DNA from: a virus
Virus record (IMG/VR): IMGVR_UViG_3300027963_005443
DNA: 64,000 nt
Strand: one strand, 5' to 3'
The notes below the pieces were generated by a model. That model searched no databases and had not been told where the DNA came from. It worked only from the letters and a program-made list of their open reading frames with translations. The translations under genes were made by a program, and so were the position numbers. Positions 1,343-64,000 of this stretch are shown here, piece by piece. Numbering within the stretch: the stretch's first letter is position 1; each line of letters starts with the position of its first letter.

Positions 1343-1528
1343 ATGATAACTTTTAAAGAATATGTAAAGAAAATATTTGGAGAAGATATAGTGGGGATAT
1401 ATCCTCCACAATATGGCGGAATAGGTCAATATCCGCCATTGGCGAACCAAACAGGTTCGGATCAAGTATATGTGAAGGCCAGCAGAAACAGCCTTAAAAA
1501 GAAAAAGAAGAAGAAAAAGAGTCGATGA
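1343..1528 (+). CDS. Small basic protein with T4 internal-protein-like N-terminus
   Basis: MITFKEYVKK start, poly-Lys C-terminus, TATATA 5 nt upstream of ATG. Confidence 0.7.
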   Translation: MITFKEYVKKIFGEDIVGIYPPQYGGIGQYPPLANQTGSDQVYVKASRNSLKKKKKKKKSR

Positions 1529-2403
1529 CTCTACCAATCCGCATTGGTATTATGGCAAAAAAATTTATAATAGTTACAACACCCAGAAGTGGGTCTCAGA
1601 TGCTATGCGAGTTCCTCGGTAGTCAAAAAAAAATACGGTGTCAATATGAAATATTACACCCATATAAAGAAAAGCATTTAAATTTAATAGCTTTTGGTAG
1701 AAATAGTTTAGAAGTTCAGAGAAAATTTAAAATTTTACTAGGTGAGGATGCCGATAAATTTATAGGAAACAGAAACAGAAACTTTATAGAATATTTAAAG
1801 CTTTGGGAAGAGGTAATACAGTCGGAATATTTTGGGTTTAAGATATTTTTCAGTCATCACATAGGAACAAATAACAAATTACCTCCAGAAGACCATATCG
1901 GGATTGGCAATTTTTTAAAATACATAAAAGATAATAATATAAAAATCATACATTTGACTCGTGATAATATCTTTTTGAAATATATTTCGCACAAAACAGC
2001 AGGCATTACAAAAAATTATAATTCAGAATTAGAATCAATAAAATTTCATTCAATTGGCATTAATGTATTTTACAAAGAGTTTATTGATTATAAAAAAGAT
2101 TTATTAGAAGAAGAAGAAATAGTATTTAACTTCTGTTTAAAAAACAATATTGATTATCACCATGTGACTTATGAAGATTTAACAGGAAAAAATTATATTT
2201 CTTTTTATAAGAACATTATTAAATTTTTAGGAGAGGATCCTGAAAGCCTATCTGATATCAGTGGAACTCCAAAACAAAGAAAAATAAAAACTAACACTCT
2301 TACATTAAGACAAAAAGTTTTAAATATAGATAATTTTATAAAAGAAGCAGAAATCGCAAATGATACGGAGTTATTAAAAAATATAAGTATTTTATTAAGT
2401 TGA
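1525..2403 (+). CDS. Sulfotransferase (Stf0/NodH-like)
   Basis: 5'-PAPS motif TTPRSGSQML, EILHP, IIHLTRDN...S (3'-PAPS binding), VTYEDL. Confidence 0.85.
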   Translation: MTLPIRIGIMAKKFIIVTTPRSGSQMLCEFLGSQKKIRCQYEILHPYKEKHLNLIAFGRNSLEVQRKFKILLGEDADKFIGNRNRNFIEYLKLWEEVIQSEYFGFKIFFSHHIGTNNKLPPEDHIGIGNFLKYIKDNNIKIIHLTRDNIFLKYISHKTAGITKNYNSELESIKFHSIGINVFYKEFIDYKKDLLEEEEIVFNFCLKNNIDYHHVTYEDLTGKNYISFYKNIIKFLGEDPESLSDISGTPKQRKIKTNTLTLRQKVLNIDNFIKEAEIANDTELLKNISILLS

Positions 2404-2408
2404 TTGAA

Positions 2409-2996: not shown

Positions 2997-3010
2997 AAAT
3001 CCCCCTTATC

Positions 3011-4488: not shown

Positions 4489-4492
4489 ATTG

Positions 4493-4657: not shown

Positions 4658-4687
4658 GAGGTTATTTATTAAACTATTTTATTTTTT

Positions 4688-5281
4688 TTACTCAATTCTC
4701 ATAAGAAGATTGCACCTGCCGTTAGCACAATTAGGCTTTGGAGGCAAAGACAAAGGACTATCGCCCACGGCACGACATTTACCATTGGGGCAATTTAGTC
4801 TAGGAGGGTTAGAAAAATCATTATCAACAGCACGACAATTTCCACTCCTACACCGGGATTCCAGTTTCTTACTAATCACCGTCTCTTTGATTAGCTTCCA
4901 ATCAGAGTCTATTTTTTTCATTGCAAGTAAGCTCACAATAATATTGTTTGTTTCATTAACAGTCATTTTGTATTCAACTGCTATCTCGACAAAATCATCC
5001 TTAATATCTATTAACTTTTTGTCTAATATAGATATATTAATTTTATTAGACAAAAAGAACAGTGCAATTTCTCTCTTCTCTCTTTTAGTGGAACTCACAC
5101 GAAGAGAAAGATATTTATTGTGATCTTCTGCGTTTGCTGCTTCGCAAATTTCTTCAATAGTGTTGAAATAACCATTATCGTCTTGTGTGGCAGTAATTCG
5201 ATCTGTCGATTCTTCCTGGGCTTTTAAGGAAAAACAACAAACAAACAGCAACGACAAGGTTGCAATTATTTTTTTAAACAT
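4688..5281 (-). CDS. Exported protein: signal peptide, NTF2/SnoaL-like domain, C-terminal CxxGxC repeats
   Basis: MFKKIIATLSLLFVCCFSLKA signal peptide; CRSGNC, CPNGKC, CANGRC. Confidence 0.75.
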   Translation of the reverse strand: MFKKIIATLSLLFVCCFSLKAQEESTDRITATQDDNGYFNTIEEICEAANAEDHNKYLSLRVSSTKREKREIALFFLSNKINISILDKKLIDIKDDFVEIAVEYKMTVNETNNIIVSLLAMKKIDSDWKLIKETVISKKLESRCRSGNCRAVDNDFSNPPRLNCPNGKCRAVGDSPLSLPPKPNCANGRCNLLMRIE

Positions 5282-5314
5282 TTAAGAAAAATTCTCTGTG
5301 GACCTTCCCGTTAT

Positions 5315-5334: not shown

Positions 5335-5376
5335 CGAGAGGGATAAAAAATGAAAAATTTAATCCTCTTATGAGGT

Positions 5377-6906
5377 ATGATCCCATCCGGCAAAATTATT
5401 TGCATCAAAGTAAAACATGGATTGGCAAATAGATTGCGGACTTTGAATTCTTTTTATAATTTTGCAGAAGAGAATAATTTCGAATTAAGAGTTCTCTGGG
5501 GTGAAGGGGCAGGGTGGTCTGATGAGAAATTCTACGACTTGTTTCAAAAAACAAAATTAAAATTCATAAATGAAAAAGAATATGAAGAATTATCTTTGCT
5601 GAATTTTAATCTAGACAGGGTGATTTACAAAAATGAAAAAAATCCAGACGAATATGTTCACGAAATTGAACAAAATTCAATAATTGATTTTATTAAAAAA
5701 AATTCTTTTTGTTATTATGGCGATTCTTGCATTGAATACATGTTAAGTTCTTTATGGCACAATTACGGCAAATATGAATTTATTAAAAGTTTAAAATTCA
5801 AACCAGAAATACAAAATAAAATAAAGAATATAAGCAAGTCTTTTAATAAAAATACCATAGGAATTCACATAAGAAGAGGAGACTCAACAACAAGTCCATG
5901 GAAAGACAAGTTTGGCATTTCCGATAACGAGTCATTTGTGATTAAAATAAATGAAGAAATAGAAACAAATCCGGATTGTAATTTTTTCTTATCAACAGAC
6001 TGCGAGGATACCAATAATTATTTTGTAAATAAATTTCCAAATTTATTATGGAATAAAGATAAAAAGTTTTTTAAGAATATCAATCACTTAGAAAGTAAAC
6101 CAGGTCAAAAAGATGCGTTAATTGATATGATGCTATTATCTGGGACAAAAAAAATAATAGGATCAAATTGGAGTAGCTTTTCATATATTTCTTCAAAGAT
6201 AAACAAAATTCCATTAATTATAGCAAAAAAACAAGAAGCAAAATTAATTCCAAAAAAAGAAGAAACTATTTCATTGATTTGTTCTGTTAAGAACAGAACT
6301 GACATGCTGAAAATATCTATTCAATCATGGATAAAACATAAAGATATAAAAGAATATGTAATAGTAGATTGGTCCTCAGATGAAGACATATCTTACTTAT
6401 CAAAGTTGGATGATCGGATTAAAGTAATCAGGGTGGAAAATGAAAAATACTTTTCAGTTGTAAAAGCACCAAATTTAGCAATAAAAAATACCTGTGGCGA
6501 TTTGATTATAAAAATGGATGTGGATTATATTTTAAATCCATATTACGACTTTTTTCAAGAATATAAAATTAAAAAAAATGAGTTTCTAACAGGTAACTGG
6601 GAAGATTTCCTGATCGACAATGATATGGGATTTATTAGATATTTGCACGGATTCCTTTATGTTCACAGAGAAAATTTGATAAAAATAGGTGGATATAACG
6701 AATTGATGAAAAATTATGGATATGAAGATTGCGATATATTCAATAGATTAACTGGTATTGGTTTGGAAAGAAAATATTTAAACCATAACAAACCATGTAT
6801 AATTCATATGCCGCATCCAGATTCAGTCAGATCTGAGAATTATGAAAATAAAGATATAATGGAAACCTTAACAGATAATTATAAAATATCTAATGGTTTA
6901 GAGTGA
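5377..6906 (+). CDS. Two-domain glycosyltransferase: fucosyltransferase-like GT-B plus GT2/GT7-like GT-A
   Basis: N-half HGLANRL, IGIHIRRGD, FFLSTD, DMMLLS, SSFS; C-half KMDVD, GGYNE, YGYEDCD. Confidence 0.8.
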   Translation: MIPSGKIICIKVKHGLANRLRTLNSFYNFAEENNFELRVLWGEGAGWSDEKFYDLFQKTKLKFINEKEYEELSLLNFNLDRVIYKNEKNPDEYVHEIEQNSIIDFIKKNSFCYYGDSCIEYMLSSLWHNYGKYEFIKSLKFKPEIQNKIKNISKSFNKNTIGIHIRRGDSTTSPWKDKFGISDNESFVIKINEEIETNPDCNFFLSTDCEDTNNYFVNKFPNLLWNKDKKFFKNINHLESKPGQKDALIDMMLLSGTKKIIGSNWSSFSYISSKINKIPLIIAKKQEAKLIPKKEETISLICSVKNRTDMLKISIQSWIKHKDIKEYVIVDWSSDEDISYLSKLDDRIKVIRVENEKYFSVVKAPNLAIKNTCGDLIIKMDVDYILNPYYDFFQEYKIKKNEFLTGNWEDFLIDNDMGFIRYLHGFLYVHRENLIKIGGYNELMKNYGYEDCDIFNRLTGIGLERKYLNHNKPCIIHMPHPDSVRSENYENKDIMETLTDNYKISNGLE

Positions 6907-8443: not shown

Positions 8444-8781
8444 AACGGGATATTAGAACGAAACTCAGATACGCTGATATCACATCTGGTTTCGTGCTCA
8501 TCGTAGGCATGTCTTAATTTATGCCCTACTATCTTTTCGATCTTTTTAAGAAGCTTTTTTGTAATCTTTTCTCCAAAATAAAAACAATCTCCAACAATTC
8601 TTGCCCTTCTTTGGCAATAAGGAAGATTGATTATATTGGAGAGTGATACTTTGTATTTATTGGCTACTATTGGGGCAACAACTTCTTCCCAAAATTCTGT
8701 ATGGTTTTTATCTTCTTTAACATGAAGAACTGTGTCATCATCTAGGATATAAACAGGGTATCCCCCATCAAAGTCAGACAT
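8440..8781 (-). CDS. Hypothetical protein
   Basis: 113-aa ORF whose start overlaps the ligase stop. Confidence 0.7.
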   Translation of the reverse strand: MSDFDGGYPVYILDDDTVLHVKEDKNHTEFWEEVVAPIVANKYKVSLSNIINLPYCQRRARIVGDCFYFGEKITKKLLKKIEKIVGHKLRHAYDEHETRCDISVSEFRSNIPF

Positions 8782-10048
8782 CTCGTTCTCCGTCGTATAG
8801 ACACTTAAAAACAGGAAACCTCAAACTAAACCCGCCATCTTGATTGGTAGATTCTGCGAAATACTTCACAGTGATTGTTTTACCGATAATCTTTTTAGGA
8901 TTTTTATAATACTCTCTTCTTTCTTCTACATTCCATCCACTGCCTACCCTGACAGGAAACCCCTTGTGTTCTATAGTAACACAGCTTAACATTACTTCTT
9001 CAATCTCTTTTCCGTCAACAACTTGATGAATAGGTCCAAATTCAACATCCTTTACAACGTACTCAGCATCAAAGAATGTCTTGCATTTTAGAAGCTCTTT
9101 TGTTCTTTTGCCTTTATATGTTGAATTTAATCGAAGCATCAAGCCTTCCCAATTACTATCATCCGCTTCCTTCAATAGCTTTTTAAAGTGGTCATCATCT
9201 TTGACTATTTCCTGATGCAATATATGAAGAAATTTATTGTCTTTGGGTATATTCTTCTCAAGAAGAGCCAATCTGTCTTCTAGATTTAATTTTCCTTTTT
9301 TATTATAGAATTCCTCTGCGCTAAGGAAGTCAAATATTTTGTAAACAGGAAAAGGAATTGAGTAGTCCTTTTTTCTGATCAATTTCATAATGCCTTGAAA
9401 GTCTTCAATGCCATCCTTGAAGATGCAAACCTCACCATCTAAGACAATGTTCTTAATACCTAATTTTTGAATTTCTTTTTCAAGAACAGAAAGAGTGGTA
9501 AAGATCTTGCCTTGCCTGCTGTATGATGTTGCATTCCCATGCTCATCCACAACCGTAATGCAGCGGCAACCGTCCAATTTCCTGCTGGCGTAATAGTCGC
9601 TAGAGGAAAAATCTAAATCTTTTTCATGCTTTTCAGCAAGAGCAACTTCAAACTCAGGGATAAGTCCGGGAATTGCCTTGTTGATAGTTTTTTCGGCTAT
9701 TCTTGTTTTAAGATCCTTGTCCAAGATATTGAATACAATGTCCTTATGATCAGGATTTTTTTCAATAAAAGAATTCACGCAGCCAATTGCTTCGTGTCCC
9801 GTAACAATTCTTTTTCTTAGATTATCAAGCAATTCAAAGACATCACTGAAAGATTTTCCTTTCAGTGAACTATTCTTTTCACAAACACTGCTCGTGATAT
9901 AAAACTGGTAGTATGGGTTGTAGACATACATCACCAGTTTTTTTAGATCATCATCTTCAAGATGAGTTTTTAATATTTTTACTTTATCTAAACTCGAAGA
10001 TGTATCTTTAAGAAGATCCGATAATTTCTTTATTTTATTTAAAACCAT
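8774..10048 (-). CDS. lig: ATP-dependent DNA ligase
   Basis: RKLDGCRC, LDGEV, IFDFL, EGLMLR, KRTKELLKCK, RVGSG, SLRFPVF. Confidence 0.95.
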   Translation of the reverse strand: MVLNKIKKLSDLLKDTSSSLDKVKILKTHLEDDDLKKLVMYVYNPYYQFYITSSVCEKNSSLKGKSFSDVFELLDNLRKRIVTGHEAIGCVNSFIEKNPDHKDIVFNILDKDLKTRIAEKTINKAIPGLIPEFEVALAEKHEKDLDFSSSDYYASRKLDGCRCITVVDEHGNATSYSRQGKIFTTLSVLEKEIQKLGIKNIVLDGEVCIFKDGIEDFQGIMKLIRKKDYSIPFPVYKIFDFLSAEEFYNKKGKLNLEDRLALLEKNIPKDNKFLHILHQEIVKDDDHFKKLLKEADDSNWEGLMLRLNSTYKGKRTKELLKCKTFFDAEYVVKDVEFGPIHQVVDGKEIEEVMLSCVTIEHKGFPVRVGSGWNVEERREYYKNPKKIIGKTITVKYFAESTNQDGGFSLRFPVFKCLYDGERDV

Positions 10049-11667: not shown

Positions 11668-11964
11668 TCAAGGTTGCGGCGGCGGGGCAATGAATTCTGC
11701 AAAGTCCGAGACGCTAATTCTGCTGGCTATGGCACGAGTAAGCATCTCAATAGTTTGGACATAATTTAAGTTACGCTTGATCTTAGTGGGCCTCATACTT
11801 TCATCCTTGTAATATTTTAAGGTAAATTGCCAAGGATTAGTTTCATTATTTACTAAGATGGATTCTATATGATATTCTCTGCAACCGTATTTCTTGTCTT
11901 CCAAAGAATTTCGGCAAGCATTGGACATGAGTTCAGTCAAAAACTTTGTTACATCTATTTCCAT
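11668..11964 (-). CDS. Hypothetical protein; start reassigned to ATG 11964
   Basis: ORF track gives 11982, but that start lies inside regulatory motif copy 3. Confidence 0.6.
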   Translation of the reverse strand: MEIDVTKFLTELMSNACRNSLEDKKYGCREYHIESILVNNETNPWQFTLKYYKDESMRPTKIKRNLNYVQTIEMLTRAIASRISVSDFAEFIAPPPQP

Positions 11965-36042: not shown

Positions 36043-36330
36043 ATGAGCAATTTATACAGGGAAACATTAAACAATATAATTGCGGCTGATGATCTGCATT
36101 GGAATGAAATTGAAAAAAAATATACTGCTTTATCTATGGATGAGCTCGATTCGATACTCTCAAATTGTATTGATCAAGGAATAACCGACGAAGACAGCAT
36201 GATAAAAATTGTTGCATGGGCAACAAACGCCAGAGTGGGAGCCTTATTATTAAAAAACTTTTTAGAAAATAAAGTAAAAATAAGTGTCGACAAAGAAGGC
36301 GAAACATATTTTAATAAAAAAAATAATTAA
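36043..36330 (+). CDS. Hypothetical protein
   Basis: SD aaggag; first gene of the glycosyltransferase operon. Confidence 0.7.
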   Translation: MSNLYRETLNNIIAADDLHWNEIEKKYTALSMDELDSILSNCIDQGITDEDSMIKIVAWATNARVGALLLKNFLENKVKISVDKEGETYFNKKNN

Positions 36331-49200: not shown

Positions 49201-52200
49201 TTACTAACTTTTCGCAATACTGAGTAGAAAGGACCATGTGATACTATTAAATACCTGCCGTTATAAGGAGTATAAGAAGAAGTAGATCCAGATGGAACGT
49301 CTTTTTCAGCATCTGAAATAAAGATATATGAATTAACATTAAATCCGTATATGCTTAAATTCACAAGATTTATACTTCCGTCCCAAAGACACATGCTGAT
49401 ACCGACCTGATAATCATTGGCGTTCTGAATTTGGCAACTTAAGAAAATATTACCAAAAGTACTTGCTCCTACCGGTTTTGCCTGACATATATTGGATCCA
49501 AACCCTCCTATAAATTCATTTGCAGAAGTGCCGCATTGAGGTGGATCATTAGCACAAATATCATCAGTTATAACTGCTCGGCAATTTACAGAGCCGCTCA
49601 CACAAACAAATGGATCTGGGGCTACGGTTGTGGTGGTTGGAGCAACAGTGGTTGTGGTTGGAGCAACAGTTGTAGTTGTGGTTGGAACAACAGTTGTTGT
49701 GGTGTTTGTGTTATTAGACTTTATACCCAGACTATCCCCAATACCGGCAATTGCGGTGTGCCATGTATCCGAACCTACCTGGGCAATGCTGCCCCAGTAG
49801 GGGGCTGAGGGGTCACCCTTTCCAAGTTGTCCACTCCCGTTATGTCCCCAAGCCCATAGTGTTCCATTAGTTTTTAAGGCAACAGTGTGGGTTGCCCCAG
49901 CACTTATTGATTCCCAATCATTATCAGAACTTATTTGAACAGGAGAAGTTTTATCGACCCAGGTCCCGTCTCCAAGTTGGTGCAATCCATTATATCCCCA
50001 AGCCCATAGTGTTCTATTAGTTTTCAGGGCAATGGTAAAATTTCCTCCAACACTTATTGATTTCCAATCATTGTCGGAGCCTATTAAAGTAGGGATATTT
50101 AATGTTGATCTAGGCGGTCCGACACCAAGTTGACCAAATTCATTATATCCCCAAGCCCATAGTGTTCCATCATTTTTTAGGGCAATGGTAGAAAACTCTC
50201 CCGTACTTATTAATTTCCAATCACTGTCGGAGCCTATTTGGATGGGCGAGAGTTGGTTGGGAGAAGATGCTCCATTCCCGAGCTGACAGAAGCGACTCTC
50301 TCCCCAAGCCCATAGTGTTCCATTGATTTTTAGGGCAAAAGCAGATTCTCCTCCAGCACTTATTGATTCCCAATCATTATCAGAACCTATTTGGACAGGA
50401 GAATTCTTGTTGATCCCGGTTCCGTCTCCAAGCTGACCCTTTAGATTATTTCCCCAGGCCCATAGTGTTCTATCAGTTTTTATTGCAATGGTAAAATTAG
50501 ATCCAACACTTATTGATTCCCAATCACCGTCAGAACCTATTTGGATGGGTGATAATTTATCAACAACTGTTCCATCTCCAAGTTGGCCAAATTCATTATA
50601 TCCCCAAGCCCATAGTGTTCCATTAGTTTTTAGGGCCATGGTGTGTGATGCCGGGTTTGTCCCAGAATTAGCAATTATAGATTTCCAATCATCATCAGAA
50701 CCTATTTGGATGGGTGATGATTTAGCTAAAACTGTTCCGTCTCCAAGTTGTCCCTTCCCGTTATATCCCCAAGCCCATAGTGTTCCGGATACAATCGCAG
50801 GAGCAATTGTTGTTGTTGTTGTTGTTGTTGTAGTGGGGCAACTATATTTTAGTCCATAACTGGTCCAGTCCGATGTGGCTATAGAAGAATAGCCCTCGCC
50901 AATTTTTATTGGCGTCGAGGATTGACGAGATGTCCCTGCTGCTTTGAAGTTGCCTCCCCAAGCATATACGTCTCCGTTTGTTCGCAGAGCCAAAACAAAA
51001 TCCTCGCCAGTGCTAACCTCTAGCCAATCACCTTCAATTATTTGAAAGTCTCCAACAACATCACCTGTGACGTACCAAACATGTAACTCTCCATTATTTT
51101 TAATCGCCGCCAATGACGGGGTGTATTGTTGCTGGGTGTATCCATTCCACCCATGTCCGGGAGCCATTACTTTATAACCCTCTCCCAATTTTGTTTTTAT
51201 AGAAAAATTATAAAACTCATCATAGGCTATCAGATATAAATCACCATTGGATTTTAATGCAATTCCACCTCCATCTCCACTGTTTACCGCAACTATATCT
51301 TCATCTATTTTAGTTGGAATATAATTATTTGGCCCAAACTTTGGGCTGTTTATGGAGTTATACCACCAACTATATAAATCTCCATTGGACTTTATTGCAA
51401 AAACAAATTGTTCGCCAGCTGAAACCTTTTTGTAGCCTTCACCTATTTTGGTTGGAGTGTTATAATCTAGTTTGTTATTGCCAACAACATCTCCCCATGC
51501 ATATAAATCACCATTGCTTTTTATACCAAAAGAAGCATACGATCCCCCACTCACTTCTATATAATCTTCTCCGATTTTAACTGGGTTAAACGAGTCAGTT
51601 CTGGTGTTGTTGCCAATCTCTCCATATAAATTTTTGCCCCAAGAATATAAATCTCCATTAGACTTTATTGCTAAGAAATGACTGTGATTCTCACCACTTG
51701 ATAATTTAGCAAATCCATTTCCAACCAATTTATGACGAACTTGGCCACCGGAAAACCCAGGGGTTTCAAATTGTGTTCCATCACCAATTTGTCCAAACAA
51801 ATTATTTCCCCATGCATATAAATAAATATTACAATCATTGGGATTGACGGTTGTTGTTACGGGAGCTATTATAGAACGAGGAATATCTATAAAAACAGAA
51901 ATAATATTACAATCATCTGTTACTGAATTACAACTACATGAAGAAGGCAAAGACTGAGTTATACAATCCTTTATTTGGGATGCTGCAAAAATTTGTAATT
52001 TTGTATTTTGTCCACTTTTATACCCGCCATAAACAAGGGTATCGTTATATTCATCCCAAAGATCTCTTCCTATTTCATCATAAAGGGTAAGAGTGCCATC
52101 GGAATTCATTTTATAAACATCGCCGCAAATTGTAAAAAGATATATATCTTCGCCTGCTCCACCCAGACCTGTGACTCCGCCATAGCCAGCACGGAAAGAG

Positions 52201-53183
52201 TTGCAACCAATTAATGATGTTGTTATATCATAGTTTTTTTCCAACAAACCAGATTCATAATCATACACTAGTATGTTCCAAGATGGGCTTGTAATCATGC
52301 AACCGCACGAAACTATTAGCTTTCCATTACTTGTAAGGCATATATCAGCAGCACTACTTAAGCTGCAGTTTGTTGGTAGTTCGGCACGCACGGTCACAGA
52401 ACTTGTATTGTTTGTGTCAACTCCAACTATGATTCTGCCACCGCCTTCTGGGTATAGGGGATCCTCTGCTTTGGTTGTAATGATAGTCTCATCTCCATCG
52501 CAACTCATTCCAAAATTAGGCACAGAATCAGATAAAATTAATTGCCTTTTATATGACATTGTGAACGGTTCAAAGGACTCGATATCCCACTCAGTTATTA
52601 TTGAACCATCACAATATCCCCCTATGCCATGTTCAAAATCTGGTGGGTGGACACCATTGACGGGTCCAATCCAAAATTTGTTTTTAGTATGAGCTATATC
52701 GATACAGTTAGGATTTGTTGGAAAATAATCTCCAAGAATAGGGTCTCCCCATACATCGTGACTTATTCTAGTTGATTTTTTAGAAGCTATATCATATTTA
52801 TACAAGGCTAAATTAGGAAGAACCGTCACTCCGTATGGAGCATGAGGACCTATGGCTGCACCCAAATACAACATGCTAGAATCTGCGCATGGGGGTGATG
52901 TTGTAGTGGTTGTAGTGGTTGTGGTTGGTTCGCAGGGATCAATAATTTGAGGGTCACAATTTAGGCGAGAATTTTCACAAGATTCAGAGTTTTGCCAAAC
53001 TGTGACGAGGGTATCAAGGGGAGCGCAACAAGGACACTTATAGCAAGCCCCGTTGTTTGGGTCGCCAACCATGCACCTTGGACGACAGTAACAACAACCG
53101 TCCCCCTCCCAATGACCAATTCCAAAAAAAGGATCATCTATTACAAAATAACAAGGCTCTTGAGTGGTCGTTGTATTTGGCAT
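46254..53183 (-). CDS. 2309-aa mosaic protein: RCC1 repeats, trypsin-like domain, Fn3, beta-propeller, poly-Thr linkers
   Basis: [16 protein letters not shown]1 repeats in two clusters; [13 protein letters not shown] / GDFTIG / LDSGSP; W..P...GGSPIT.Y (Fn3); WDG.SW..LG.G repeats. Confidence 0.92.
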
Positions 53184-53210: not shown

Positions 53211-54947
53211 CTAAGGGCAATCACCCAAGGATGCTGCGCAATATGTTTGATCTGGGCAACAAACCCAAGTAGTTTCTGAGCAACAACCACAGTTACCAGC
53301 ATTGTCTCCGCAGCATTTATCTGAGGGGTTGGGGCAAGGAAAGCCTCCGCAATTTTCAATCGTACAATTGTCAGGCGGGGATGTTGTAGGCGGGGATGTT
53401 GATGTTGTAGGCGGTGATGTAGTAGGCCCGCATTGCGAGGGATCATCACATCGGCCAACTGTGGTCACCGAACCAGCAGAGACACAAGAATTGAATATTT
53501 CAACGTCATTATCAAGAATTTGAACCCATTCAACGGTAGTGTGACATCCAGGAAATTGAGGATCTATATTCGGGCCACCCCAAGATTCACCTTCAACGCA
53601 AACCAATTCAAATGAAATGAGACCGCCTTCACCGATAAGCTCACTTGGAATACTAAATCCTGCTGCCCTATCTCCTCCGTCGATCATATTATCCAGATTA
53701 GCGGTTCCCAATACAGTATCATTAACTTTAACATAAAAAGTAGCTCCATCACATTGATGTCCACCAGGACAAGGACCCTCTGTGTTGCTATACTTAACGT
53801 TCATCGTTAATTCTCCGGGACAGCACGGACCATGTGTGGTTGTTGTGGGTTGAGCCTCGCAACCAGATGATTGGCAAGATGCAAGGCTACTAAAAAATCC
53901 AAGATTTTCACAAGTTTGGGAAACTCCGCCGAATTCAGAACTAGGTTGAACAAAAATTGAATTACACGAAGGGCACTCCCAACATTCAATTGAATTTGGA
54001 GGGGGATTGCAATCTCCATTAAGGTTAGATTCACAATCACTTCTACTAGAATAACCACCAGTCTGACACGATACAGAAAAACACTCTAAATCTGTACATT
54101 GATTAAAAGACCAACATGGAGCAGGCGTTGTGTTGGGTGGAGATGTAGTATTAGGTGGAGATGTAGTGTTGGGTGGAGATGTTGTGTTGGGTGGAGATGT
54201 AGTGTTGGGTGGAGATGTTGTGTTATACGAGCAATACAAAGCCAAATAATCACTATTGGGAAATACTCCCGGCCGAACACATGGATTTTCAATAGATAAT
54301 AATGTGGTCTTTTTTGCTAAATAGCAGGATCCATCTTGTATGCCTATGTAATTTTCTAAATTAAGTTTATAACTACTAGGTAGCGTAAAACAAACATATT
54401 CATTATCAATAAATCTACCTGATTGATTTTCACCATAAAAAACCCAAGTACCTGTGGGGTTATTAATGTCATCAGGACCTATTGCAAAAAATCTTCCTTG
54501 CATAGTGGCGTTAGAATTTAATCCTCTCAAGAAAACAATTCCCGTACTATCCAATCCAGTCTGAATGTTTTGACAACCGGACGGTCTCAAAAAGCAAGGA
54601 GCCGAAGTAGTAGTTGGTGCAGGAGTCGTAATACAATCTTGTATCAAACTAACCAAAGTCCCATCTTTAATCTTATTTTTATAATCTAGTATTATTTGAT
54701 TGAAACAAGAAATATTATTTTTACTTGTTATATGAAGATCATTTTCATCAAATTTAAAATATAATTTATCATAACCTAAATCAGCAATCCAAGTCATAGT
54801 TTTGTCTGTCGGACAGTCATTTTTAACTTTGTTTAAAGCAAAAGTTTTACATGGAATGTCACAGCAGTTCTGCGGAATTTCTGGGCAGCCTGGGCGGATA
54901 GTCGTAGTGGGTGCTGTTGTGGTTGGATCGCTAGTGGTGGTAGGCAT
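53211..54947 (-). CDS. Cys/Thr-rich surface protein with GPCPGGH domain and shared C-terminal CC module
   Basis: TTSPPN repeats, GPCPGGHQC...NLDN..DGGDR...GCH, terminal CC module. Confidence 0.85.
   Translation of the reverse strand: MPTTTSDPTTTAPTTTIRPGCPEIPQNCCDIPCKTFALNKVKNDCPTDKTMTWIADLGYDKLYFKFDENDLHITSKNNISCFNQIILDYKNKIKDGTLVSLIQDCITTPAPTTTSAPCFLRPSGCQNIQTGLDSTGIVFLRGLNSNATMQGRFFAIGPDDINNPTGTWVFYGENQSGRFIDNEYVCFTLPSSYKLNLENYIGIQDGSCYLAKKTTLLSIENPCVRPGVFPNSDYLALYCSYNTTSPPNTTSPPNTTSPPNTTSPPNTTSPPNTTPAPCWSFNQCTDLECFSVSCQTGGYSSRSDCESNLNGDCNPPPNSIECWECPSCNSIFVQPSSEFGGVSQTCENLGFFSSLASCQSSGCEAQPTTTTHGPCCPGELTMNVKYSNTEGPCPGGHQCDGATFYVKVNDTVLGTANLDNMIDGGDRAAGFSIPSELIGEGGLISFELVCVEGESWGGPNIDPQFPGCHTTVEWVQILDNDVEIFNSCVSAGSVTTVGRCDDPSQCGPTTSPPTTSTSPPTTSPPDNCTIENCGGFPCPNPSDKCCGDNAGNCGCCSETTWVCCPDQTYCAASLGDCP
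54120..54225. repeat. 18-nt tandem repeat (NTTSPP x5)
   Basis: gtgttgggtggagatgta/t units. Confidence 0.85.
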
Positions 54948-55023: not shown

Positions 55024-55434
55024 ATGAATTGGGTCATAAAAGATTTAAAAAATTGCAAAAAAGAGTATAAAACTCTATTATCTTCCACTCCTCTTGGCGA
55101 TGACTATATGAGAGAAGGAGTGATATTAAGCAAAAAAAGAAAAAAAAATAGTTATTTTGCTGTCTGTTTGTATGATAAAAAAAAATTAATTGGATGGTCT
55201 ATGTTGGATTTCTTTTTATCCAAAAATAGCAATTCCGTAAGAACTTATATCTACGTAAAAACAAAATATAGACGTAAAAAATTTGGCACTACGATATTAG
55301 AAAAAGCCAAAAAAACTGCAGAGATAAAATTTGGTAAAAAAATTAAGGTTATACCTCATGACAAAAATAGCCTTAAATTCTTTAAAGCGATAAAGATTAC
55401 TAAAGAGGAAATTGTCAGAGGATATAAATACTAG
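55024..55434 (+). CDS. GNAT-family acetyltransferase; start reassigned to ATG 55024
   Basis: YIYVKTKYRRKKFGTTIL acetyl-CoA motif A; FFKAI. Confidence 0.7.
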   Translation: MNWVIKDLKNCKKEYKTLLSSTPLGDDYMREGVILSKKRKKNSYFAVCLYDKKKLIGWSMLDFFLSKNSNSVRTYIYVKTKYRRKKFGTTILEKAKKTAEIKFGKKIKVIPHDKNSLKFFKAIKITKEEIVRGYKY

Positions 55435-56941: not shown

Positions 56942-57784
56942 ATGGAAAATATCAAAATCTGGCGACTGCATCCAAGAGGCTGCCGAGTTGAAAAAGCAGA
57001 AAAAACTTGCTTGGGAACTGCTAACTCTGCCGCTGTACGTTGGTGTGGTCCTTACACAAACGCAAATAAATATGGATTTTGGATATATCCTCCAATAGAT
57101 TTCAATTTTATTTATAAAAATGGAAAATTCGAATATGAATACCTAGAAGATTACGGAGATGATGACCACGAAATTATAAAATCACTAATAAAGCCGTGCG
57201 ACAACTCTAAGCCAGATAAATGGCTTCCTGAAGATGGCAGAACCAAATTCACTTGGGGAATGGTCGAGCCAAATGTCATACAAATTTGGACAGGGTTGAT
57301 TTTTCAAACTCCTCCAGGATGGTGCTTACACATCAGAAGTCCTATTAACTTTCAACACACAAAATACCGTGTAATGGAAGCTGTTTTAGAAACTGATTGG
57401 ATGCAATATGACATATGGATAAATTTAGTTTGTAATCAAGATGGAAAATTTGAAATAAATAAAAATATTCCAATTGCTCAATTGTTGCCGGTAAGAAGAG
57501 AAAGTTTTGAAGAGAAATGCGAAATTCAAGAGGAAAATATAAACCGAAATTCAAGAGAAAGTAATAAAGTGTTTGAATATTATCTGCACTATAATAAAAA
57601 AAAGTTCGAAAATGGCGGAAAACAACTTCTAACAGCTGATGGATCTTTGACGAAAGACTCTGGTACTTATCATAAAGAAAAAAATAAAATTTTAGATAAA
57701 GAAATGGAGCCAAAATGCCCTTTTCAACAATCTAAAAATTTTATAGGAAGACTATTATCAAAAAAAATTCCCCCTCCCGGTTAA
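56942..57784 (+). CDS. DUF6065-like protein
   Basis: CGPY..AN..GFWIY.P, FQTPPGW.L..RSP.N, LETDW, PIAQLLPV.R. Confidence 0.65.
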   Translation: MENIKIWRLHPRGCRVEKAEKTCLGTANSAAVRWCGPYTNANKYGFWIYPPIDFNFIYKNGKFEYEYLEDYGDDDHEIIKSLIKPCDNSKPDKWLPEDGRTKFTWGMVEPNVIQIWTGLIFQTPPGWCLHIRSPINFQHTKYRVMEAVLETDWMQYDIWINLVCNQDGKFEINKNIPIAQLLPVRRESFEEKCEIQEENINRNSRESNKVFEYYLHYNKKKFENGGKQLLTADGSLTKDSGTYHKEKNKILDKEMEPKCPFQQSKNFIGRLLSKKIPPPG

Positions 57785-57797: not shown

Positions 57798-57805
57798 GTC
57801 ATAAA

Positions 57806-58383: not shown

Positions 58384-59931
58384 ATGAGCAATAATACATG
58401 TAATTATCTAACTAAAATTATTAATATTCCCGGAGACTGGCGATCCGTATCTTGTTCTTCCAATGGCACGAAAATAGTGTGTATTAAACGGTATGATGGT
58501 TTATACCGCAGCATAGATTCTGGTAGTACATGGGTGAAAAAAATCAATTCCCCAGGTGATGGATTTTCTCATATTTCTGGCGACGGCCAAATAGGAATTT
58601 TTATATCACGCTACACATACAATGATATATATGTATCTCAGGATAGCGGACACACCTGGGTCAATAAACAACCGGGTCTCCCATTACAGGAATTTACTCC
58701 CACAGAATCTAGAATAATTTGCTCATCATATAGTGGAGATACTATTTTTATAGTGCCTGGTCTTTATGCGAGTTTAACAGGTTATTTTTACAAAAGCACA
58801 GATAAAGGAGATACTTGGACAAAAATTACATCGGGATTAGAGCCCTTTACATCCATATCTTGCTCAAGTGATGGTAATACAGTATTGGCTACAGGAAAAT
58901 CCAATGTTTATATAAGTAACGATTCTGGGCTGTCCTGGAGTGTACGCACGTTACCCGTGGCATTAAACGAGCAAGCGGATTGTGAACAATTATATGCTTG
59001 CTGTATGTCAAGCAATGGCACCTCTATGATGGCTTCAATCAGAGAAAAATTCAATGACACCCCATGTAACAGTCAAACAGTTTATGGGTCATTTATTAGT
59101 AGAAACGGCGGGTCTACCTGGGTCGGAGTGGACATAATAGCATCGCAATTAGCTTGTTCAGATGACTTTAGCACAATTTTAGCCGGAGCGGCTGGTTCGT
59201 ATTCATATAGAGTTAGTAAAGATGGGGGAAATTATTGGGCAAATATAATTGATCAAAATAATCCTGATTCTTTCAGGTATATTAGCGGGGTAGATTTAAA
59301 TAGCACAGGAGATAAGCTTTATATATCAGCTAGTGGCGCCAACTCTGTGTATGATAATGAGTTTATATACTCGGTAAATTGCGAAACTTTGCCTCCTATA
59401 CCAGGCACTACAACTACAGCAGCACCTACTACAGCAGCACCTACTACAGCAGCACCTACTACAGCAGCACCTACTACAGCAGCACCTACTACAGCAGCAC
59501 CTACTACAGCAAAAGAAATATGCTTCAGGGTAATTTGTCCAGATAACGATTGCGTATCAAATGTAGTTTGCATACCGGTAAACACTGCCCCGGAGGCACC
59601 GATTGATCACTCTTGTGATTGCATAGATTGTGGAACATGCCCAGAAGCGCCTCCCTTTGTTACTACAGTAGCACCTACAACTACAGTAGCACCTACAACT
59701 ACAGTAGCACCTACAACTACAGTAGCACCTACAACTACAGTAGCACCTACAACTACAGTAGCACCTACAACATCTCCGCCTGCTGGATGTTGTGAGGGGG
59801 CTTGCAACCCAATGGAGAAATGCTGTTCAGATGGCTTTGGCAACTGCGATTGCTGCCCAGAAATTAACTGGGTTTGCTGTCCAGGAAACTTGAATTGTGC
59901 AGCAACCTTGGCCGATTGCCCTCCTCAGTGA
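58384..59931 (+). CDS. BNR/Asp-box propeller protein + TTAAP/TTVAP linkers + shared C-terminal CC module
   Basis: S.DSG.TW repeats; terminal KCCSDGFGNCDCCPEINWVCCP...CAATLADCP. Confidence 0.88.
   Translation: MSNNTCNYLTKIINIPGDWRSVSCSSNGTKIVCIKRYDGLYRSIDSGSTWVKKINSPGDGFSHISGDGQIGIFISRYTYNDIYVSQDSGHTWVNKQPGLPLQEFTPTESRIICSSYSGDTIFIVPGLYASLTGYFYKSTDKGDTWTKITSGLEPFTSISCSSDGNTVLATGKSNVYISNDSGLSWSVRTLPVALNEQADCEQLYACCMSSNGTSMMASIREKFNDTPCNSQTVYGSFISRNGGSTWVGVDIIASQLACSDDFSTILAGAAGSYSYRVSKDGGNYWANIIDQNNPDSFRYISGVDLNSTGDKLYISASGANSVYDNEFIYSVNCETLPPIPGTTTTAAPTTAAPTTAAPTTAAPTTAAPTTAAPTTAKEICFRVICPDNDCVSNVVCIPVNTAPEAPIDHSCDCIDCGTCPEAPPFVTTVAPTTTVAPTTTVAPTTTVAPTTTVAPTTTVAPTTSPPAGCCEGACNPMEKCCSDGFGNCDCCPEINWVCCPGNLNCAATLADCPPQ
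59413..59511. repeat. 15-nt perfect tandem repeat x6+ (TTAAP)
   Basis: actacagcagcacct units. Confidence 0.92.
59662..59769. repeat. 18-nt perfect tandem repeat x6 (TTVAPT)
   Basis: actacagtagcacctaca units. Confidence 0.92.
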
Positions 59932-59966: not shown

Positions 59967-61892
59967 ATGCCAAATGATGCTAATTTTAAAATATACGGAT
60001 TTTGCAATAAATTAAAGATACACTGCATGGAACTTACAGATGAGGGGTTTATAGCAGGAGGACAAAATGCAATAAAAAGAAAGTATTATTGGAATAGTGA
60101 AAAAGGTTTTGTTTACGGGGATGGAACAAGTGTGCAAAACCCTCCTTGGGCAATAAATAACAATAAAATAAGATTAAATTTTGAAGATGATATAAATTGT
60201 TCCAAATACAATAAGCATAGACAAAAAGCAACATGCAGAATCCACATCAATCCTTTTGAACAAAAAAATATAAACTTATCTTGGATTGGAATGGCGGAAC
60301 AAAACTCTTCAGATAACGAATATATGGAATTAAGGCTAGATGGACAAAAAATTGCTAGTTCTGGTTCTGTTGGGGATGGCAAAGGTTGTTCCTCTATGGT
60401 TTCTGTGGTTTCCAAAGATTCAGAAGGAAACATAATATCACCTTCGGCAGTTTTAACATTAGCAGAAGGTCTGAGTGTAATAGACATACTTTTAGATACA
60501 AAAAACGAATTCTTCCACACAAATTCATATTATGAATTTACAATGGATCCATTTACTTGTATGTGTGATCTAGAAATAGATCAAGTAACACATACGGGAG
60601 AAATGTCAACTGGTGGCGCAGAAAATTTCATAATAGAAATGATCAATAACAAAAATTGCTGCAGCAGAGTTCAGTATAAATTAGATTGCGGAGATTGGAT
60701 TGATTATCCTATCTGCTCGGTCACAGAAACCACAACCACAACCACAATTGGTCCAGCTTGCCCCGGTAATTGTGATAATAACTTAATACTGAACGGGGAT
60801 TTTGAATTAGATGCTCCAAATATGGACCTGGGAACGGCTCAACATTGGGTAGTGGACAATGTGGATGTAACATCCGTAGAGTTATCGGGTCCCAATAAAA
60901 ATGTTTGGATAGATTTAAATGCATGCTCTCCAGGTTCTATGGAACAATCTTTTTCAACTATTATTGGTCAACAATATATATTGTATTTCAATATGGCAGG
61001 AAATAGCGCATGCACCCCCTCTAATCCGTGCGACGAAAGAACAGATAATATAAATAATGTTAAAACTTTCAAGGTTTCTGTTGCTGGCGTGGTTCAAAAC
61101 TATACATTTGATACCAGTAGTACTCCGAATTTAATCCCAGGTAAAATAGCAGATTATTCAGGGATGGGATGGACTTCAGAATCCTTGATATTTACTGCGG
61201 TGGAGTCTACTACAACCTTGAGATTTGAAAGCACCTGCAGCTCTTGCGGATGCTTTGGTGCAGCAATAGATTGCGTAGAAGTTTGTACTATAGCGGCAAC
61301 TACAACATTGGCTCCTTGTGTAAATTTAATTACCAATGGAGACTTTAGTTCGCCATCATCTTTAAATGGTAGATGCACAAACAGTATAGGCGTAGATAAT
61401 AGACAAGACTTAAATGGAATTCTTCAAGTAGCCCCTCCTTGGTATCTTTGGCCGAACGGCGACGTTTTTTCTTTTTATTATTGCAATAATTCATTGCCAA
61501 ACAATAGATTTGTTAGTTTAGGATTATCAGTTAATAGGGCTTATTTATCACAAACTATATCAACAGTTATAGGAGCCACATATACATGCTCCTTTGATAT
61601 GGGGTGCTCACCCGGATACAACGGCTTAAACTTAACATCTAGGTCGTTGGACGTGTTTGTTTCACCAGGAGTTGATCTAAAGAATACTTTTAATATAGAT
61701 AATGTAGTCACAGGCAATACTTACGAAAGTTTAGGATGGATGCGTAAATCATTTCAATTTACTGCGACTTCTTCCTTAACCATGATTACGTTCCGGACAC
61801 CAAATGATTCATTGAATGCTATTCCAAACGGTAATCCTGGGGTCGAGTGTTTGTCTGTGATAGATAACGTGGAGGTTTGCCTAGAAACTTGA
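59967..61892 (+). CDS. Surface protein with two DUF642-like (galactose-binding-fold) domains
   Basis: NLILNGDFE...SFSTIIGQQY.L.F.MAGN...GW....L.FTA...T.L.F...IDCVEV, twice. Confidence 0.88.
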   Translation: MPNDANFKIYGFCNKLKIHCMELTDEGFIAGGQNAIKRKYYWNSEKGFVYGDGTSVQNPPWAINNNKIRLNFEDDINCSKYNKHRQKATCRIHINPFEQKNINLSWIGMAEQNSSDNEYMELRLDGQKIASSGSVGDGKGCSSMVSVVSKDSEGNIISPSAVLTLAEGLSVIDILLDTKNEFFHTNSYYEFTMDPFTCMCDLEIDQVTHTGEMSTGGAENFIIEMINNKNCCSRVQYKLDCGDWIDYPICSVTETTTTTTIGPACPGNCDNNLILNGDFELDAPNMDLGTAQHWVVDNVDVTSVELSGPNKNVWIDLNACSPGSMEQSFSTIIGQQYILYFNMAGNSACTPSNPCDERTDNINNVKTFKVSVAGVVQNYTFDTSSTPNLIPGKIADYSGMGWTSESLIFTAVESTTTLRFESTCSSCGCFGAAIDCVEVCTIAATTTLAPCVNLITNGDFSSPSSLNGRCTNSIGVDNRQDLNGILQVAPPWYLWPNGDVFSFYYCNNSLPNNRFVSLGLSVNRAYLSQTISTVIGATYTCSFDMGCSPGYNGLNLTSRSLDVFVSPGVDLKNTFNIDNVVTGNTYESLGWMRKSFQFTATSSLTMITFRTPNDSLNAIPNGNPGVECLSVIDNVEVCLET

Positions 61893-61905
61893 CTAAAATA
61901 TAAAA

Positions 61906-64000
61906 ATGATAAATAAACACTTCGTAATAAACCAAATAGAATTAGATGATACAAATTTTGATGCACCAATAACAAAATTGGATGTACCAACTACATCACC
62001 ACCAGACACACCAACTACACCACCACCCAGGTGTCCTAGTTTTTGGATAAACTCAGGTGTAAACGCAGAAGTATTTTATAAGAAAAACTCCGGTCCTTGT
62101 CCTGGCGGGCATCGTTGCGACAGAGCTGTTTTCGATTTATATGTAAATGATTCATTGGTAAAAGAAAACATAAATTTAAATAATTTATCAGATGGAGGAG
62201 ATCGAACAAGCGGAGTCTTTTCAATTCCCACAGATATACTTTATTGGGATATCAATTGCGAATGCAGCTTCTATTTTAACCTAAAATGTAAGTTATCTTG
62301 TGATTGCCATAAAGGCTTGGCTTGGATTATAATTAAAAATTCAAGCGGTAAAGTTTTATATGATAACTGTATACCAAATGATGAGTATGTATTTATAGGG
62401 ACTTCTTGTAAATCTAATCAAAAATTGCCAGATATTAGTTGCTACAAATGTTCAGATTGCGAATTATTCCAAACACCAACTTCAAATATCGAAGATACTT
62501 GCGAATCTTTGGGTTACTTCTCAAACTTTACTGATTGTAATAATGTTTGCACTACAACTACAACCACAACTACAACCACCACGGCGGAACCGCCTTGGTC
62601 GCCCAGATGCAATAGTTTAATACTAAATGGAGGTTTTGACCAAGTTATTGGAGGTGGGGTTGGCCCCGATGCTACACACTGGTCGCTACAGAATGTATTG
62701 TTTCAATCAATACTTCCTATGCAGCCTGGGGGAATTTTTGTGAATCTAAATGGAGGAGATACTAAAACCGGATGTTCTCCTGGGTACATAGAGCAATCTT
62801 TTTCCACCGTAGTAGGCAATCAATATACATTGTATTTCAATATGTCTGCCGCCATAAATACATCTAATTTTCCTACAAATGAATATAAAGGACTCACGGT
62901 TACTGTGGCCGGGGTTACCGAACCTTACGAGTTTGACACCAACTTGCAACAAACGCCTACCTATCAGGGAATGGGATGGGTTTCAAAATCTTTAATATTT
63001 ACTGCAGTGGATGCTACTACGACCTTAAGATTTGAAAGCACATATAACGGCTGCTGGGGACCTGCGATAGATCGTGTTGAAGTTTGCGAGAATACAACAA
63101 CTACAACTACTACAACTACTACAACTACTACAACTACTACAACTACTACAACTACTACAACTACTACAACTACAACTACAACCACTACAACCACTACAAC
63201 TACTACAACTACAACTACTACAACTACTACAACTACACCTTCGCCTGGTTTCAGGCTAAAAGATTTTGGAAATAAAAGCCAATTGTTATCTCAAACAGAA
63301 GTAGAAGATGAAATTAAAATGGAGTTTACAAATTTTTATGATATTTACGACAATAAAAGAAGAATTCAGAGAGGGCTGACTCAGCCTAGTTATTGGGCCA
63401 TAAACAGATCTAAAAATTTAGCGGATCCATTAATAGAACTTTCGTCTGGGGCCAATGATACCGACAATAATCTTTATAGAGCAGACAGCATTTATGAAGT
63501 TCAAGGACCGTATATCGGAGATGATGTGAGCGGCCTTATTTATATGGGCGATCGTAGGCCAGGGGATACTGCCTCTCTTAATTTTTCTTCATCAAATAAA
63601 TTTTCTGCTGATCGTGTTCCAAAAATTAATATTGTCGAAAATAGAATAAAAGTGTCTACGGCAAATAATTCAAGAGAATATGAAAGAGATAGTAACATAT
63701 TAGAAATGTCTAATTTAGAAATAGTAGCAGAAAGTAAAAAAATAAAGAAAGTCTTAAATCCATCAAAACTTAATATTGTTACAGCAGGAGATAGTACTTT
63801 AGAAAAAACATCAACAGATTCAGGTTATTATCTGGCTTCGACAATAGACATATATACTATTGATCAAATCAATTTATCGAATCCTCCAAAGTTTTCAATA
63901 AGTGGAGCAGGTGTGTTATATTTCGGTAACTCACAAATAGGTAGCGGTTCATTAAAAATTACAAGTTCGGGCATTAGTAAAGATGTAGATTATGGCCAAC
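61906..64000 (+). CDS. Partial (runs off window end) surface protein: GPCPGGH domain, DUF642-like domain, 48-residue poly-Thr; not in ORF track
   Basis: Manual translation open from ATG 61906 to the window end. Confidence 0.85.
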   Translation, partial: MINKHFVINQIELDDTNFDAPITKLDVPTTSPPDTPTTPPPRCPSFWINSGVNAEVFYKKNSGPCPGGHRCDRAVFDLYVNDSLVKENINLNNLSDGGDRTSGVFSIPTDILYWDINCECSFYFNLKCKLSCDCHKGLAWIIIKNSSGKVLYDNCIPNDEYVFIGTSCKSNQKLPDISCYKCSDCELFQTPTSNIEDTCESLGYFSNFTDCNNVCTTTTTTTTTTTAEPPWSPRCNSLILNGGFDQVIGGGVGPDATHWSLQNVLFQSILPMQPGGIFVNLNGGDTKTGCSPGYIEQSFSTVVGNQYTLYFNMSAAINTSNFPTNEYKGLTVTVAGVTEPYEFDTNLQQTPTYQGMGWVSKSLIFTAVDATTTLRFESTYNGCWGPAIDRVEVCENTTTTTTTTTTTTTTTTTTTTTTTTTTTTTTTTTTTTTTTTTTTTTTTTPSPGFRLKDFGNKSQLLSQTEVEDEIKMEFTNFYDIYDNKRRIQRGLTQPSYWAINRSKNLADPLIELSSGANDTDNNLYRADSIYEVQGPYIGDDVSGLIYMGDRRPGDTASLNFSSSNKFSADRVPKINIVENRIKVSTANNSREYERDSNILEMSNLEIVAESKKIKKVLNPSKLNIVTAGDSTLEKTSTDSGYYLASTIDIYTIDQINLSNPPKFSISGAGVLYFGNSQIGSGSLKITSSGISKDVDYGQ
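63094..63237. repeat. 48 consecutive Thr codons (mainly aca-act-act)
   Basis: All codons ACN, counted in frame. Confidence 0.95.

Follow-up and report, generated by a model that had tools for sequence, protein, structure and literature searches.

Glycan-building enzymes and threonine/proline-tract mosaic proteins in a 64-kb phage sequence: a tentative case for a protein-linked glycan

The IMG/VR virus record IMGVR_UViG_3300027963_005443 is analyzed here over a stretch of 64,000 nucleotides, which we call the window. It contains two separate gene sets: enzymes that build glycans, and mosaic proteins that carry long tracts of threonine and proline (Thr/Pro tracts). A preliminary description, made from the letters and their open reading frames (ORFs) only, joined these sets into a self-glycosylation system in which the virus decorates mucin-like proteins of its own particle. 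In this paper we looked at each enzyme and each tract protein and at how both are distributed in related viruses, and we weigh what the enzymes may act on.

The glycosyltransferases (GTs) and their operon, together with three genes that had been counted with them, are the following:

1525-2403, plus strand: soluble sulfotransferase of the 3'-phosphoadenosine-5'-phosphosulfate (PAPS) type, a lone gene (Sulfotransfer_1)
5377-6906, plus strand: two-domain glycosyltransferase, N-terminal fucosyltransferase-like domain and C-terminal GT2/GT7C-like GT-A domain (Pfam, motifs HIRRGD and DVD)
24831-25370, minus strand: generic class-I S-adenosylmethionine methyltransferase (Methyltransf_24, 32.9 bits)
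36043-36330, plus strand: small ORF of 95 amino acids, leader of the operon, TATAAT and AAGGAG upstream, 0 Pfam matches
36330-37265, plus strand: soluble GT47 exostosin-type glycosyltransferase (PF03016)
37262-37924, plus strand: GT-A-fold glycosyltransferase of a family without a Pfam model (predicted fold, homologues)
37909-38769, plus strand: GT-D-fold glycosyltransferase (predicted fold, PF22882 on homologues)
55024-55434, plus strand: generic GNAT acetyltransferase (Pfam, above cut-off), adjoining the GMP reductase gene

The genes that start at 36043, 36330, 37262 and 37909 overlap end to start (36043/36330, 37262/37265 and 37909/37924) and therefore form one operon. It is positioned between tract genes and is divergent from the one at 34079, and the same layout is found in a strain that is 96% identical in the flanking genes (L160). 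The GT47 protein scores 65.7 bits against a cut-off of 33.4 and has 152 homologues, nearly all of them with PF03016; among the bacterial ones are those of Hyphomicrobium, Alteromonas and Methylobacter. Querying with the single protein gave no matches on viral contigs, and an alignment-based query was needed to reach the 65 viral loci of this family, giant-virus bins included. Relatives in these giant-virus metagenome bins (L016-L060) are 29-38% identical to it, and one of the records (L021) is 617,453 bases long.

The protein at 37262-37924 matches 0 Pfam families and has 264 homologues. Its model has a predicted local distance difference test score (pLDDT) of 95.7, and the best Foldseek matches, at a template modelling score of ~0.55, are all GT-A enzymes: the fucosyltransferase WrtF, which is the closest, 6p61, K4CP and SpsA. 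Residues N78, D80 and I81, in an SDIE-type motif, are conserved among the homologues, as are D124 and D147. The model and these residues give the protein a GT-A fold with an acidic DXD-type motif. Fusion partners among its homologues include GT-D-like, FkbM methyltransferase, GT32 and Nucleotid_trans domains, and in one protein (P0245) a GT-A and a GT-D domain are fused. The third enzyme of the operon, at 37909-38769, scores 20.5 against a Pfam cut-off of 27, and PF22882 is found on many of its homologues. Its model (pLDDT 94.9) matches the DUF1792 structures 5v4a, 4phr and 4pfx with VIA Z of 12.1, 11.6 and 11.4 (root-mean-square deviation 4.2-4.3, 211-213 residues aligned) at an identity of just 10-12%, and the first unrelated row has a VIA Z of 4.7. 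Its best structural matches in viruses come from Moumouvirus and Hyperionvirus; both this GT-D-like family and GT47 thus occur in large phages and in giant viruses alike. The profile score, the models and the overlapping genes thus bear out the exostosin/GT-A/GT-D operon at 36330-38769 that the preliminary description had proposed.

Its reading of the gene at 5377 as a fusion of a fucosyltransferase-like domain and a GT2 domain also stands. In the C-terminal half GT2 and Glyco_transf_7C both score above the Pfam cut-off and a DVD motif is present; by sequence, the nearest proteins are 6p61, chondroitin synthase and beta-4-galactosyltransferase. The N-terminal half scores below cut-off for both GT11 (19.3 bits) and O-FucT (18.9 bits) and contains HIRRGD, an instance of HxRRGD, which we take to be the GDP-fucose-binding signature of GT11/GT23/GT65-type fucosyltransferases. 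This half shares 40% identity with part of a fusion protein in a related virus (L001), and that part scores 30.1 bits for NodZ (cut-off 28.3). In that virus and in four others (L006, L008, L013 and L014) the fucosyltransferase-like domain and GT47 are encoded in a single ORF, an architecture that shows a functional link between the two. The GT47 islands of relatives contain GT61, GT4, GT17, further GT47 and NodZ-type domains. From the fucosyltransferase-GT47 fusions, these islands and the GT-A/GT-D fusion it can be suggested that the dispersed enzyme genes of the window plausibly form one pathway, in which five or more transfer steps would follow each other. Neither transmembrane segments nor signal peptides were found in the window enzymes, which are therefore soluble.

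The three remaining genes of the list fared differently. The sulfotransferase proposed at 1525 is confirmed by a Sulfotransfer_1 score of 34.3 bits (Pfam cut-off 22) and by a TPRSGS motif near the N-terminus that resembles the 5'-phosphosulfate-binding loop, so that both profile and loop of a PAPS sulfotransferase are present; it has no transmembrane segment. Its homologues were found in 0 of the 50 related and control viral records described below and in 0 GenBank phages, and this lone gene may or may not belong to the glycan kit. The gene at 24831 had been described as a sugar O-methyltransferase-like modifier and the GNAT at 55024 as another modifier, and neither assignment held. The former is a generic methyltransferase, sits among replication and ATPase genes and bears no similarity to the methyltransferase encoded with GT60 in an operon of a related phage (G024, below), and the latter is a generic acetyltransferase beside the GMP reductase gene. 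We found nothing that ties either of them to sugars, and their part in any glycan system is doubtful.

The second gene set, with the genes of the same runs that carry no tracts, is as follows:

3-1286, minus strand: Thr/Pro/Ser-tract protein with an Lcl_C-like domain, crossing the window edge, TATATA at its start
32079-33992, minus strand: M43-type metallopeptidase motif, four Thr/Pro tracts, fn3, TATATA at its start
34079-35884, minus strand: paralogue of 32079 (65-86% identical), divergent from the GT operon, TATATA at its start
39369-40736, minus strand: tract-free protease-like protein, part of the same minus-strand gene run (phrog_20754, 'protease')
40750-45021, minus strand: mosaic protein of 1423 amino acids with 14 Thr/Pro tracts and 53 Cys
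45102-46208, minus strand: Cys-rich protein (28 Cys in 368 amino acids) with the shared 12-Cys module at its C-terminal, TATATA at its start
46254-53183, minus strand: 2309 amino acids with RCC1 propeller, fn3 and SBBP, eight tracts (one with a run of 24 Thr) and 60 Cys, TATATA at its start
53211-54947, minus strand: Thr/Pro-tract protein with 46 Cys in 578 amino acids and the shared 12-Cys module at its C-terminal
58384-59931, plus strand: BNR/sortilin-type propeller with a short TTVAP-type tract and the shared 12-Cys module at its C-terminal
59967-61892, plus strand: DUF642 protein without tracts, TATATA at its start
61906-63999, plus strand: DUF642 protein, one run of 48 Thr and one of 11, crossing the window edge

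The tracts are real, and they occur in eight ORFs (3-1286, 32079, 34079, 40750, 46254, 53211, 58384 and 61906) where the preliminary description had counted about ten. Its run of 48 consecutive Thr was located at residues 397-444 of 61906. Two kinds of tract exist, (T-P-T-x) repeats and pure poly-Thr runs; the pattern T-P-T-x-T-P-T was counted 30 times in the window and 0 times in shuffles, and the window proteins show the dense tandem Thr/Pro tracts that are characteristic of mucins. Thr codons are mixed within the runs, which indicates that the tracts are maintained at the protein level and are not a simple DNA repeat. The tract proteins have no signal peptide and no transmembrane segment, and their cysteine content is strikingly high. 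Modules recur across otherwise unrelated proteins of this family and are always bounded by tracts: 40750, for example, has modules in common with 46254, 53211, 59967 and 61906, the one of 59967 being 65% identical.

The 12-Cys module of ~50 amino acids at the C-terminal of 45102, 53211 and 58384 (73-79% identity; motifs such as CGGFPC, KCC, GNCGCC, WVCCP and DCP) follows directly after a Thr/Pro tract and could serve in anchoring or binding. The protein at 45102-46208 was also considered as a hidden glycosyltransferase and rejected, with Atlas scores of at most 0.83 and no family. Two Cys-rich ORFs also lie beside the tract-gene cluster of the related phage G024, with 194 Cys in 931 amino acids (L150:14008-16803, minus strand; 94008-96803 in G024 coordinates) and 82 Cys in 486 amino acids (L150:12517-13977, minus strand; 92517-93977).

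In the strain L160 the tract genes are 77-87% identical to those of the window, compared with 95-96% for the GT operon and its neighbours, and they also differ in copy number and in tract length. Such faster divergence than that of the adjoining operon is expected of exposed, host-facing proteins, and the pattern suits tract proteins that would be exposed, evolve fast and act outside the cell. The links of tract proteins to tail proteins in PHROG run solely through fn3 domains, and for the two tract-family proteins searched (32079 and 59967) GenBank phages gave no informative match. As a further difference between the strains, L160 is without window positions 29146-31280, which cover most of an ORF of 749 amino acids, and carries a single M43/fn3 tract gene in place of the two paralogues of the window.

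To which virus do these genes belong? GT47 and GMP reductase led to relatives among IMG/VR records that are 30-510 kb long, and relatives of window proteins were met on contigs of 191-225 kb. Two complete relatives have the large terminase Terminase_6N. Searches of five relatives found no tail sheath family in any of the five; the searches for Gp23 capsid and for nucleocytoplasmic large DNA virus capsid in the same five were blank, and uninformative, their controls being blank too. The Atlas neighbours of the GT-A protein at 37262-37924 are mostly Uroviricota. Based on the terminase and on these neighbours we treat the source of the window as a large uncultured tailed phage with a bacterial host. 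The preliminary description had raised a Planctomycete host, which the G+C content of the window, ~35%, does not suggest, although base composition is only a hint.

The related phages also contain an enzyme family, GT60, that the window does not show. In a complete, tract-rich phage of 152 kb (G024) the co-oriented genes of one operon encode, in this order, an HtrL/YibB-family protein, a TylF-like methyltransferase, GT60, a GT47-like enzyme, GT2, GT7C and a GT10 fucosyltransferase. In another phage (G034) the neighbours of an HtrL/YibB-GT60 pair include a GDP-mannose dehydratase gene and an epimerase/reductase gene, of the kind used for making GDP-fucose. The same island encodes a GT-D-like protein and a GT4+GT2 fusion, and it has one weak sulfotransferase-like match. 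By analogy, these operons suggest that in such phages enzymes of the window's classes may act after GT60, on a glycan that contains fucose. G024 was also considered as a close relative of the window virus, which it is not: just 4 of its proteins are in common with the window at E<1e-8. An HtrL_YibB protein of 505-552 amino acids stands directly before GT60 in three phages (L151:11633-15073 in G024, L155:1352-4271 in G008 and L158:5233-8140 in G034), in what looks like a conserved gene pair.

Based on these data the explanation that we put first, tentatively and short of calling it probable, is that the enzymes of the window extend a protein-linked glycan on the Thr tracts that has been started by GT60. 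A polypeptide-initiating enzyme, for which the GT60 type is the best candidate, would place the first sugar on the Thr tracts during infection. The enzymes encoded in the window would then act as extenders and not as initiators, lengthening this sugar into a fucose-containing oligosaccharide, and lysis would release the glycosylated stalks, most plausibly attached to the particle. Since enzymes and tract proteins alike have neither signal peptide nor transmembrane segment, both are expected in the cytoplasm and could meet there. A wider picture may be drawn from this, that of phage mucins in large freshwater phages: disulfide-rich mosaic fibres with poly-Thr stalks that would bear a multi-sugar, fucosylated and possibly methylated or sulfated O-glycan, made in the cytoplasm by a eukaryote-like GT60/GT47/GT-D/fucosyltransferase pathway in common with giant viruses and forming a virus-made glycocalyx. 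In this full form the picture is rather doubtful.

Several results weigh against an action of these enzymes on the tracts. Among the scanned ORFs of the window no polypeptide-initiating N-acetylhexosamine transferase (GT27/GT60) was found, and the operon enzymes of G024 and G034 are analogues, not orthologues, of those in the window. A tract ORF lies within 10 kb of GT47 in only 2 of the 65 viral loci. We further scored 50 viral records, 16 of them sampled via GT47 and 34 via GMP reductase as a neutral marker, for tracts, by the codon pattern T-x-T-x-T-x-T-x-T-x-T-x-T over whole records. Tracts were present in 21 of the 50, and tract proteins are common in large aquatic phages. They were found in 11 of 22 records with GT47 and in 10 of 28 without (p=0.39); neither GT-D (3 of 5 carriers with tracts) nor GT-A (1 of 3) gave a significant association, and the sulfotransferase occurs in 0 of the 50. 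Tracts are absent even from nearly complete GT47 phages such as G005 (459 kb, 91% complete) and G050 (167 kb, 100% complete). No significant co-occurrence of these GT genes or of the sulfotransferase gene with Thr-rich proteins, which the preliminary description had offered as a check, was thus seen.

GT60 (PF11397) behaves otherwise: it was found in 16 of the 50 records, of which 11 have tracts (Fisher p=0.014), and in records of at least 60 kb tracts are present in all 10 GT60 carriers, against 6 of 21 others (p=0.00025). In a tree of GMP reductase, however, GT60 falls into three clades that provide 5 independent pairs, for which the sign test is not significant, and the association of GT60 with tracts is not separable from relatedness. 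A second sample of 30 records, picked for runs of at least 16 Thr codons, contained neither GT60 (0 of 30) nor GT47 (0 of 30); this is weak evidence, as about half of the runs in this noisy sample lie in short ORFs in the Thr frame.

The start regions of the genes point in the same direction. TATATA, followed after 3-6 bases by ATG, precedes nine ORFs of at least 80 amino acids, compared with 0-2 for control hexamers of the same composition; the start codons are at 1286, 7814, 19205, 22374, 33992, 35884, 46208, 53183 and 59967. Of the 11 mosaic genes 6 have the motif, compared with 0 of 7 genes for enzymes (p=0.038); the leader of the GT operon has TATAAT and AAGGAG instead. Co-expression is therefore not indicated, and by their start regions the tract genes appear to be a regulatory class of their own; an enzyme made earlier could still act later on the tracts. 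Early expression of the GTs, with action on host polysaccharides or DNA, had been named beforehand as a result that would speak against the system, and the differing start motifs touch on this point. The claim that the enzymes modify the tract proteins is thus supported in part: by the shared cytoplasm, the position of the operon inside the tract cluster, the fucosyltransferase-GT47 fusions and the islands of the same enzyme classes beside GT60 in tract-rich relatives; significant co-variation of the window's own enzymes with tracts and a common start motif were not found. The sulfated and methylated glycan coat on the virion that the preliminary description had pictured is unsupported.

The TATATA element could be a phage-specific promoter that gives leaderless mRNAs or mRNAs with a very short leader. 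Upstream of 46254 and 59967 ~40 bases are near-identical, and both proteins start with MPN. The relative G024 does not use the element.

The main rival explanation is that the enzymes remodel a host glycoconjugate (such as precursors of lipopolysaccharide, capsule or exopolysaccharide on the cytoplasmic face) or make a free glycan, and that the tracts are plain linkers, either unglycosylated or modified by GT60 only. We hold this to be possible but somewhat unlikely. Multi-GT islands of large cyanophages are usually read as host-surface modification (PMC12801897), and the bacterial homologues of GT47 fit such a role; yet GT47 and the GT-D-like family are also shared with giant viruses, which make their own virion glycans (PMC9614988). 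No tract proteins lie near the GT47 islands of relatives, while the same enzyme classes do share operons with GT60, a family known for the transfer of N-acetylglucosamine (GlcNAc) to polypeptides. The enzyme genes have Shine-Dalgarno-type leaders, unlike the tract-gene starts, and the tracts lie exactly at the borders of shuffled modules, as would linkers that tolerate recombination. Against a host-directed pathway, no polyprenyl-phosphate priming transferase, flippase, polymerase or other membrane family was found among the scanned window ORFs, and all of the enzymes are soluble.

Another hypothesis, which we consider clearly improbable, is that the enzymes glycosylate virion proteins other than the tract proteins, such as the capsid or the tail tube. 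The GT47 phages without tracts require some other acceptor. A precedent is the exostosin-like A075L of the chlorovirus PBCV-1; antigenic mutants led to the inference that this enzyme attaches xylose to fucose in the capsid-protein glycan (PMC9614988). Glycosylation of capsid and tail tube in mycobacteriophages is summarised in PMC12619734. In the window, however, no capsid or tail gene is recognisable among the ORFs to which the enzymes could be linked, and the operon is embedded among tract genes. A role in DNA modification is the weakest option; none of the GT47, GT-D and fucosyltransferase-like families is known to glycosylate DNA. Although phage glycosyltransferases are classically DNA-modifying and multi-GT glycosylation of DNA is known (10.1101/2023.12.21.572611; PMC13326640), hypermodification of phage DNA through glycosylation of hydroxymethylated bases is most improbable here, as the scanned ORFs include no hydroxymethylase, TET/JBP-like enzyme or DNA methyltransferase and one weak deaminase match.

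Extension of a glycan on the tracts can be compared with several known systems. In the serine-rich-repeat adhesins of streptococci (GtfA/B, Gtf3, and dGT1 with a GT-D domain of DUF1792) a long stalk of hydroxy amino acids is O-glycosylated stepwise in the cytoplasm, with GT-D and GT-A enzymes as extenders. The solved GT-D enzymes matched by the model of 37909-38769 are DUF1792 proteins of Streptococcus, and these glycosylate serine-rich adhesins. GT-D and GT-A are adjacent genes in the window and fused domains in P0245. Unlike in the adhesins, the tracts are Thr/Pro and not Ser-rich, and the GT-D enzyme is remote in sequence from DUF1792, at the 10-12% identity given above; neither the GtfA/GtfB (GT4) pair nor accessory Sec (SecA2/Y2) was found among the scanned window ORFs. 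Mucin-type O-glycosylation of protists, by GT60 polypeptide GlcNAc-transferases, likewise acts on dense Thr/Pro tracts, and GT60 is present in three clades of related phages; the protist enzymes are Golgi-anchored, whereas those of the window are soluble.

Among bacterial viruses, GTs of the mycobacteriophages Che8, Corndog and Myrna have been proposed, or shown, to glycosylate proteins of the phage itself, which resembles what we suggest for the window; this virion O-glycosylation is reportedly described by Freeman et al. 2023. In those phages the sugars are carried by the C-termini of capsid and tail-tube subunits, and the structural module contains one or two GT genes, whereas the window has five GT domains of other families and its tracts are internal linkers of giant mosaic proteins. 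Glycosylation of a virus's own proteins by virus-encoded enzymes is established for chloroviruses and mimivirids (PMC9614988) and also for mycobacteriophages (summarised in PMC12619734). Capsid glycosylation of PBCV-1 (A064R, A075L, A111/114R) and the fibrils of giant viruses resemble the window in relying on soluble cytoplasmic GTs encoded by the virus. The PBCV-1 set includes an exostosin-type enzyme that works next to fucose, and it also has methyltransferase domains (PMC9614988); the GT47 and GT-D-like proteins of the window have giant-virus relatives. The glycans of PBCV-1 are N-linked to the capsid protein, while the candidate acceptors in the window are Thr/Pro tracts and the virus is a tailed phage of a bacterium.

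Many GT genes (GT2, GT10, GT11 and others), with unknown targets, are also found in large aquatic phages such as S-SCSM2R, S-SCSM1, P-SSM2 and the 'moraphages', and the authors interpret these islands as acting on the surface of the host or on DNA (PMC12801897, PMC12619734). We found no discussion of Thr/Pro-tract proteins in PMC12619734, where the word 'threonine' does not occur, or in the part of PMC12801897 that was consulted. The pairing of a GT kit with Thr/Pro-tract mosaic proteins would be new. If the enzymes do glycosylate the tracts, a bacterial virus would carry a mucin-like, multi-sugar protein coat made wholly in the bacterial cytoplasm, by enzyme families that are otherwise best known from eukaryotes and giant viruses, and phage self-glycosylation would go well past the one or two enzymes of the mycobacteriophage case. 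Such a system would supply peptide tags and soluble enzymes for O-glycosylation, and it would be relevant to protease resistance, escape from grazers or adhesion to surfaces in aquatic phages. If they do not, the window holds another multi-glycosyltransferase island of large aquatic phages, by chance beside linker-rich mosaic proteins.

As for the remainder of the window, it has 0 tRNA genes, and an NCBIfam scan added nothing beyond Pfam. A DUF6065 protein (56942-57784, 48.9 bits) is encoded between the GMP reductase gene and tract genes; it was considered as a candidate tract hydroxylase, but neither a solved structure nor any literature matched it. The ORFs of the right half are very large and unusual in composition. 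The left half holds genes of replication, repair and nucleotide metabolism, including a T4-type RNA ligase, UvdE, an ATP-dependent DNA ligase, a CobT-like VWA protein, a CobS-like AAA protein and additional AAA ATPases. In this replication half GTTTC-Y5-GGTA is found 26-60 bases upstream of four minus-strand genes (4688-5281, 8774-10048, 11668-11964 and 16991-18070), and would represent another promoter-like class that differs from the TATATA one.

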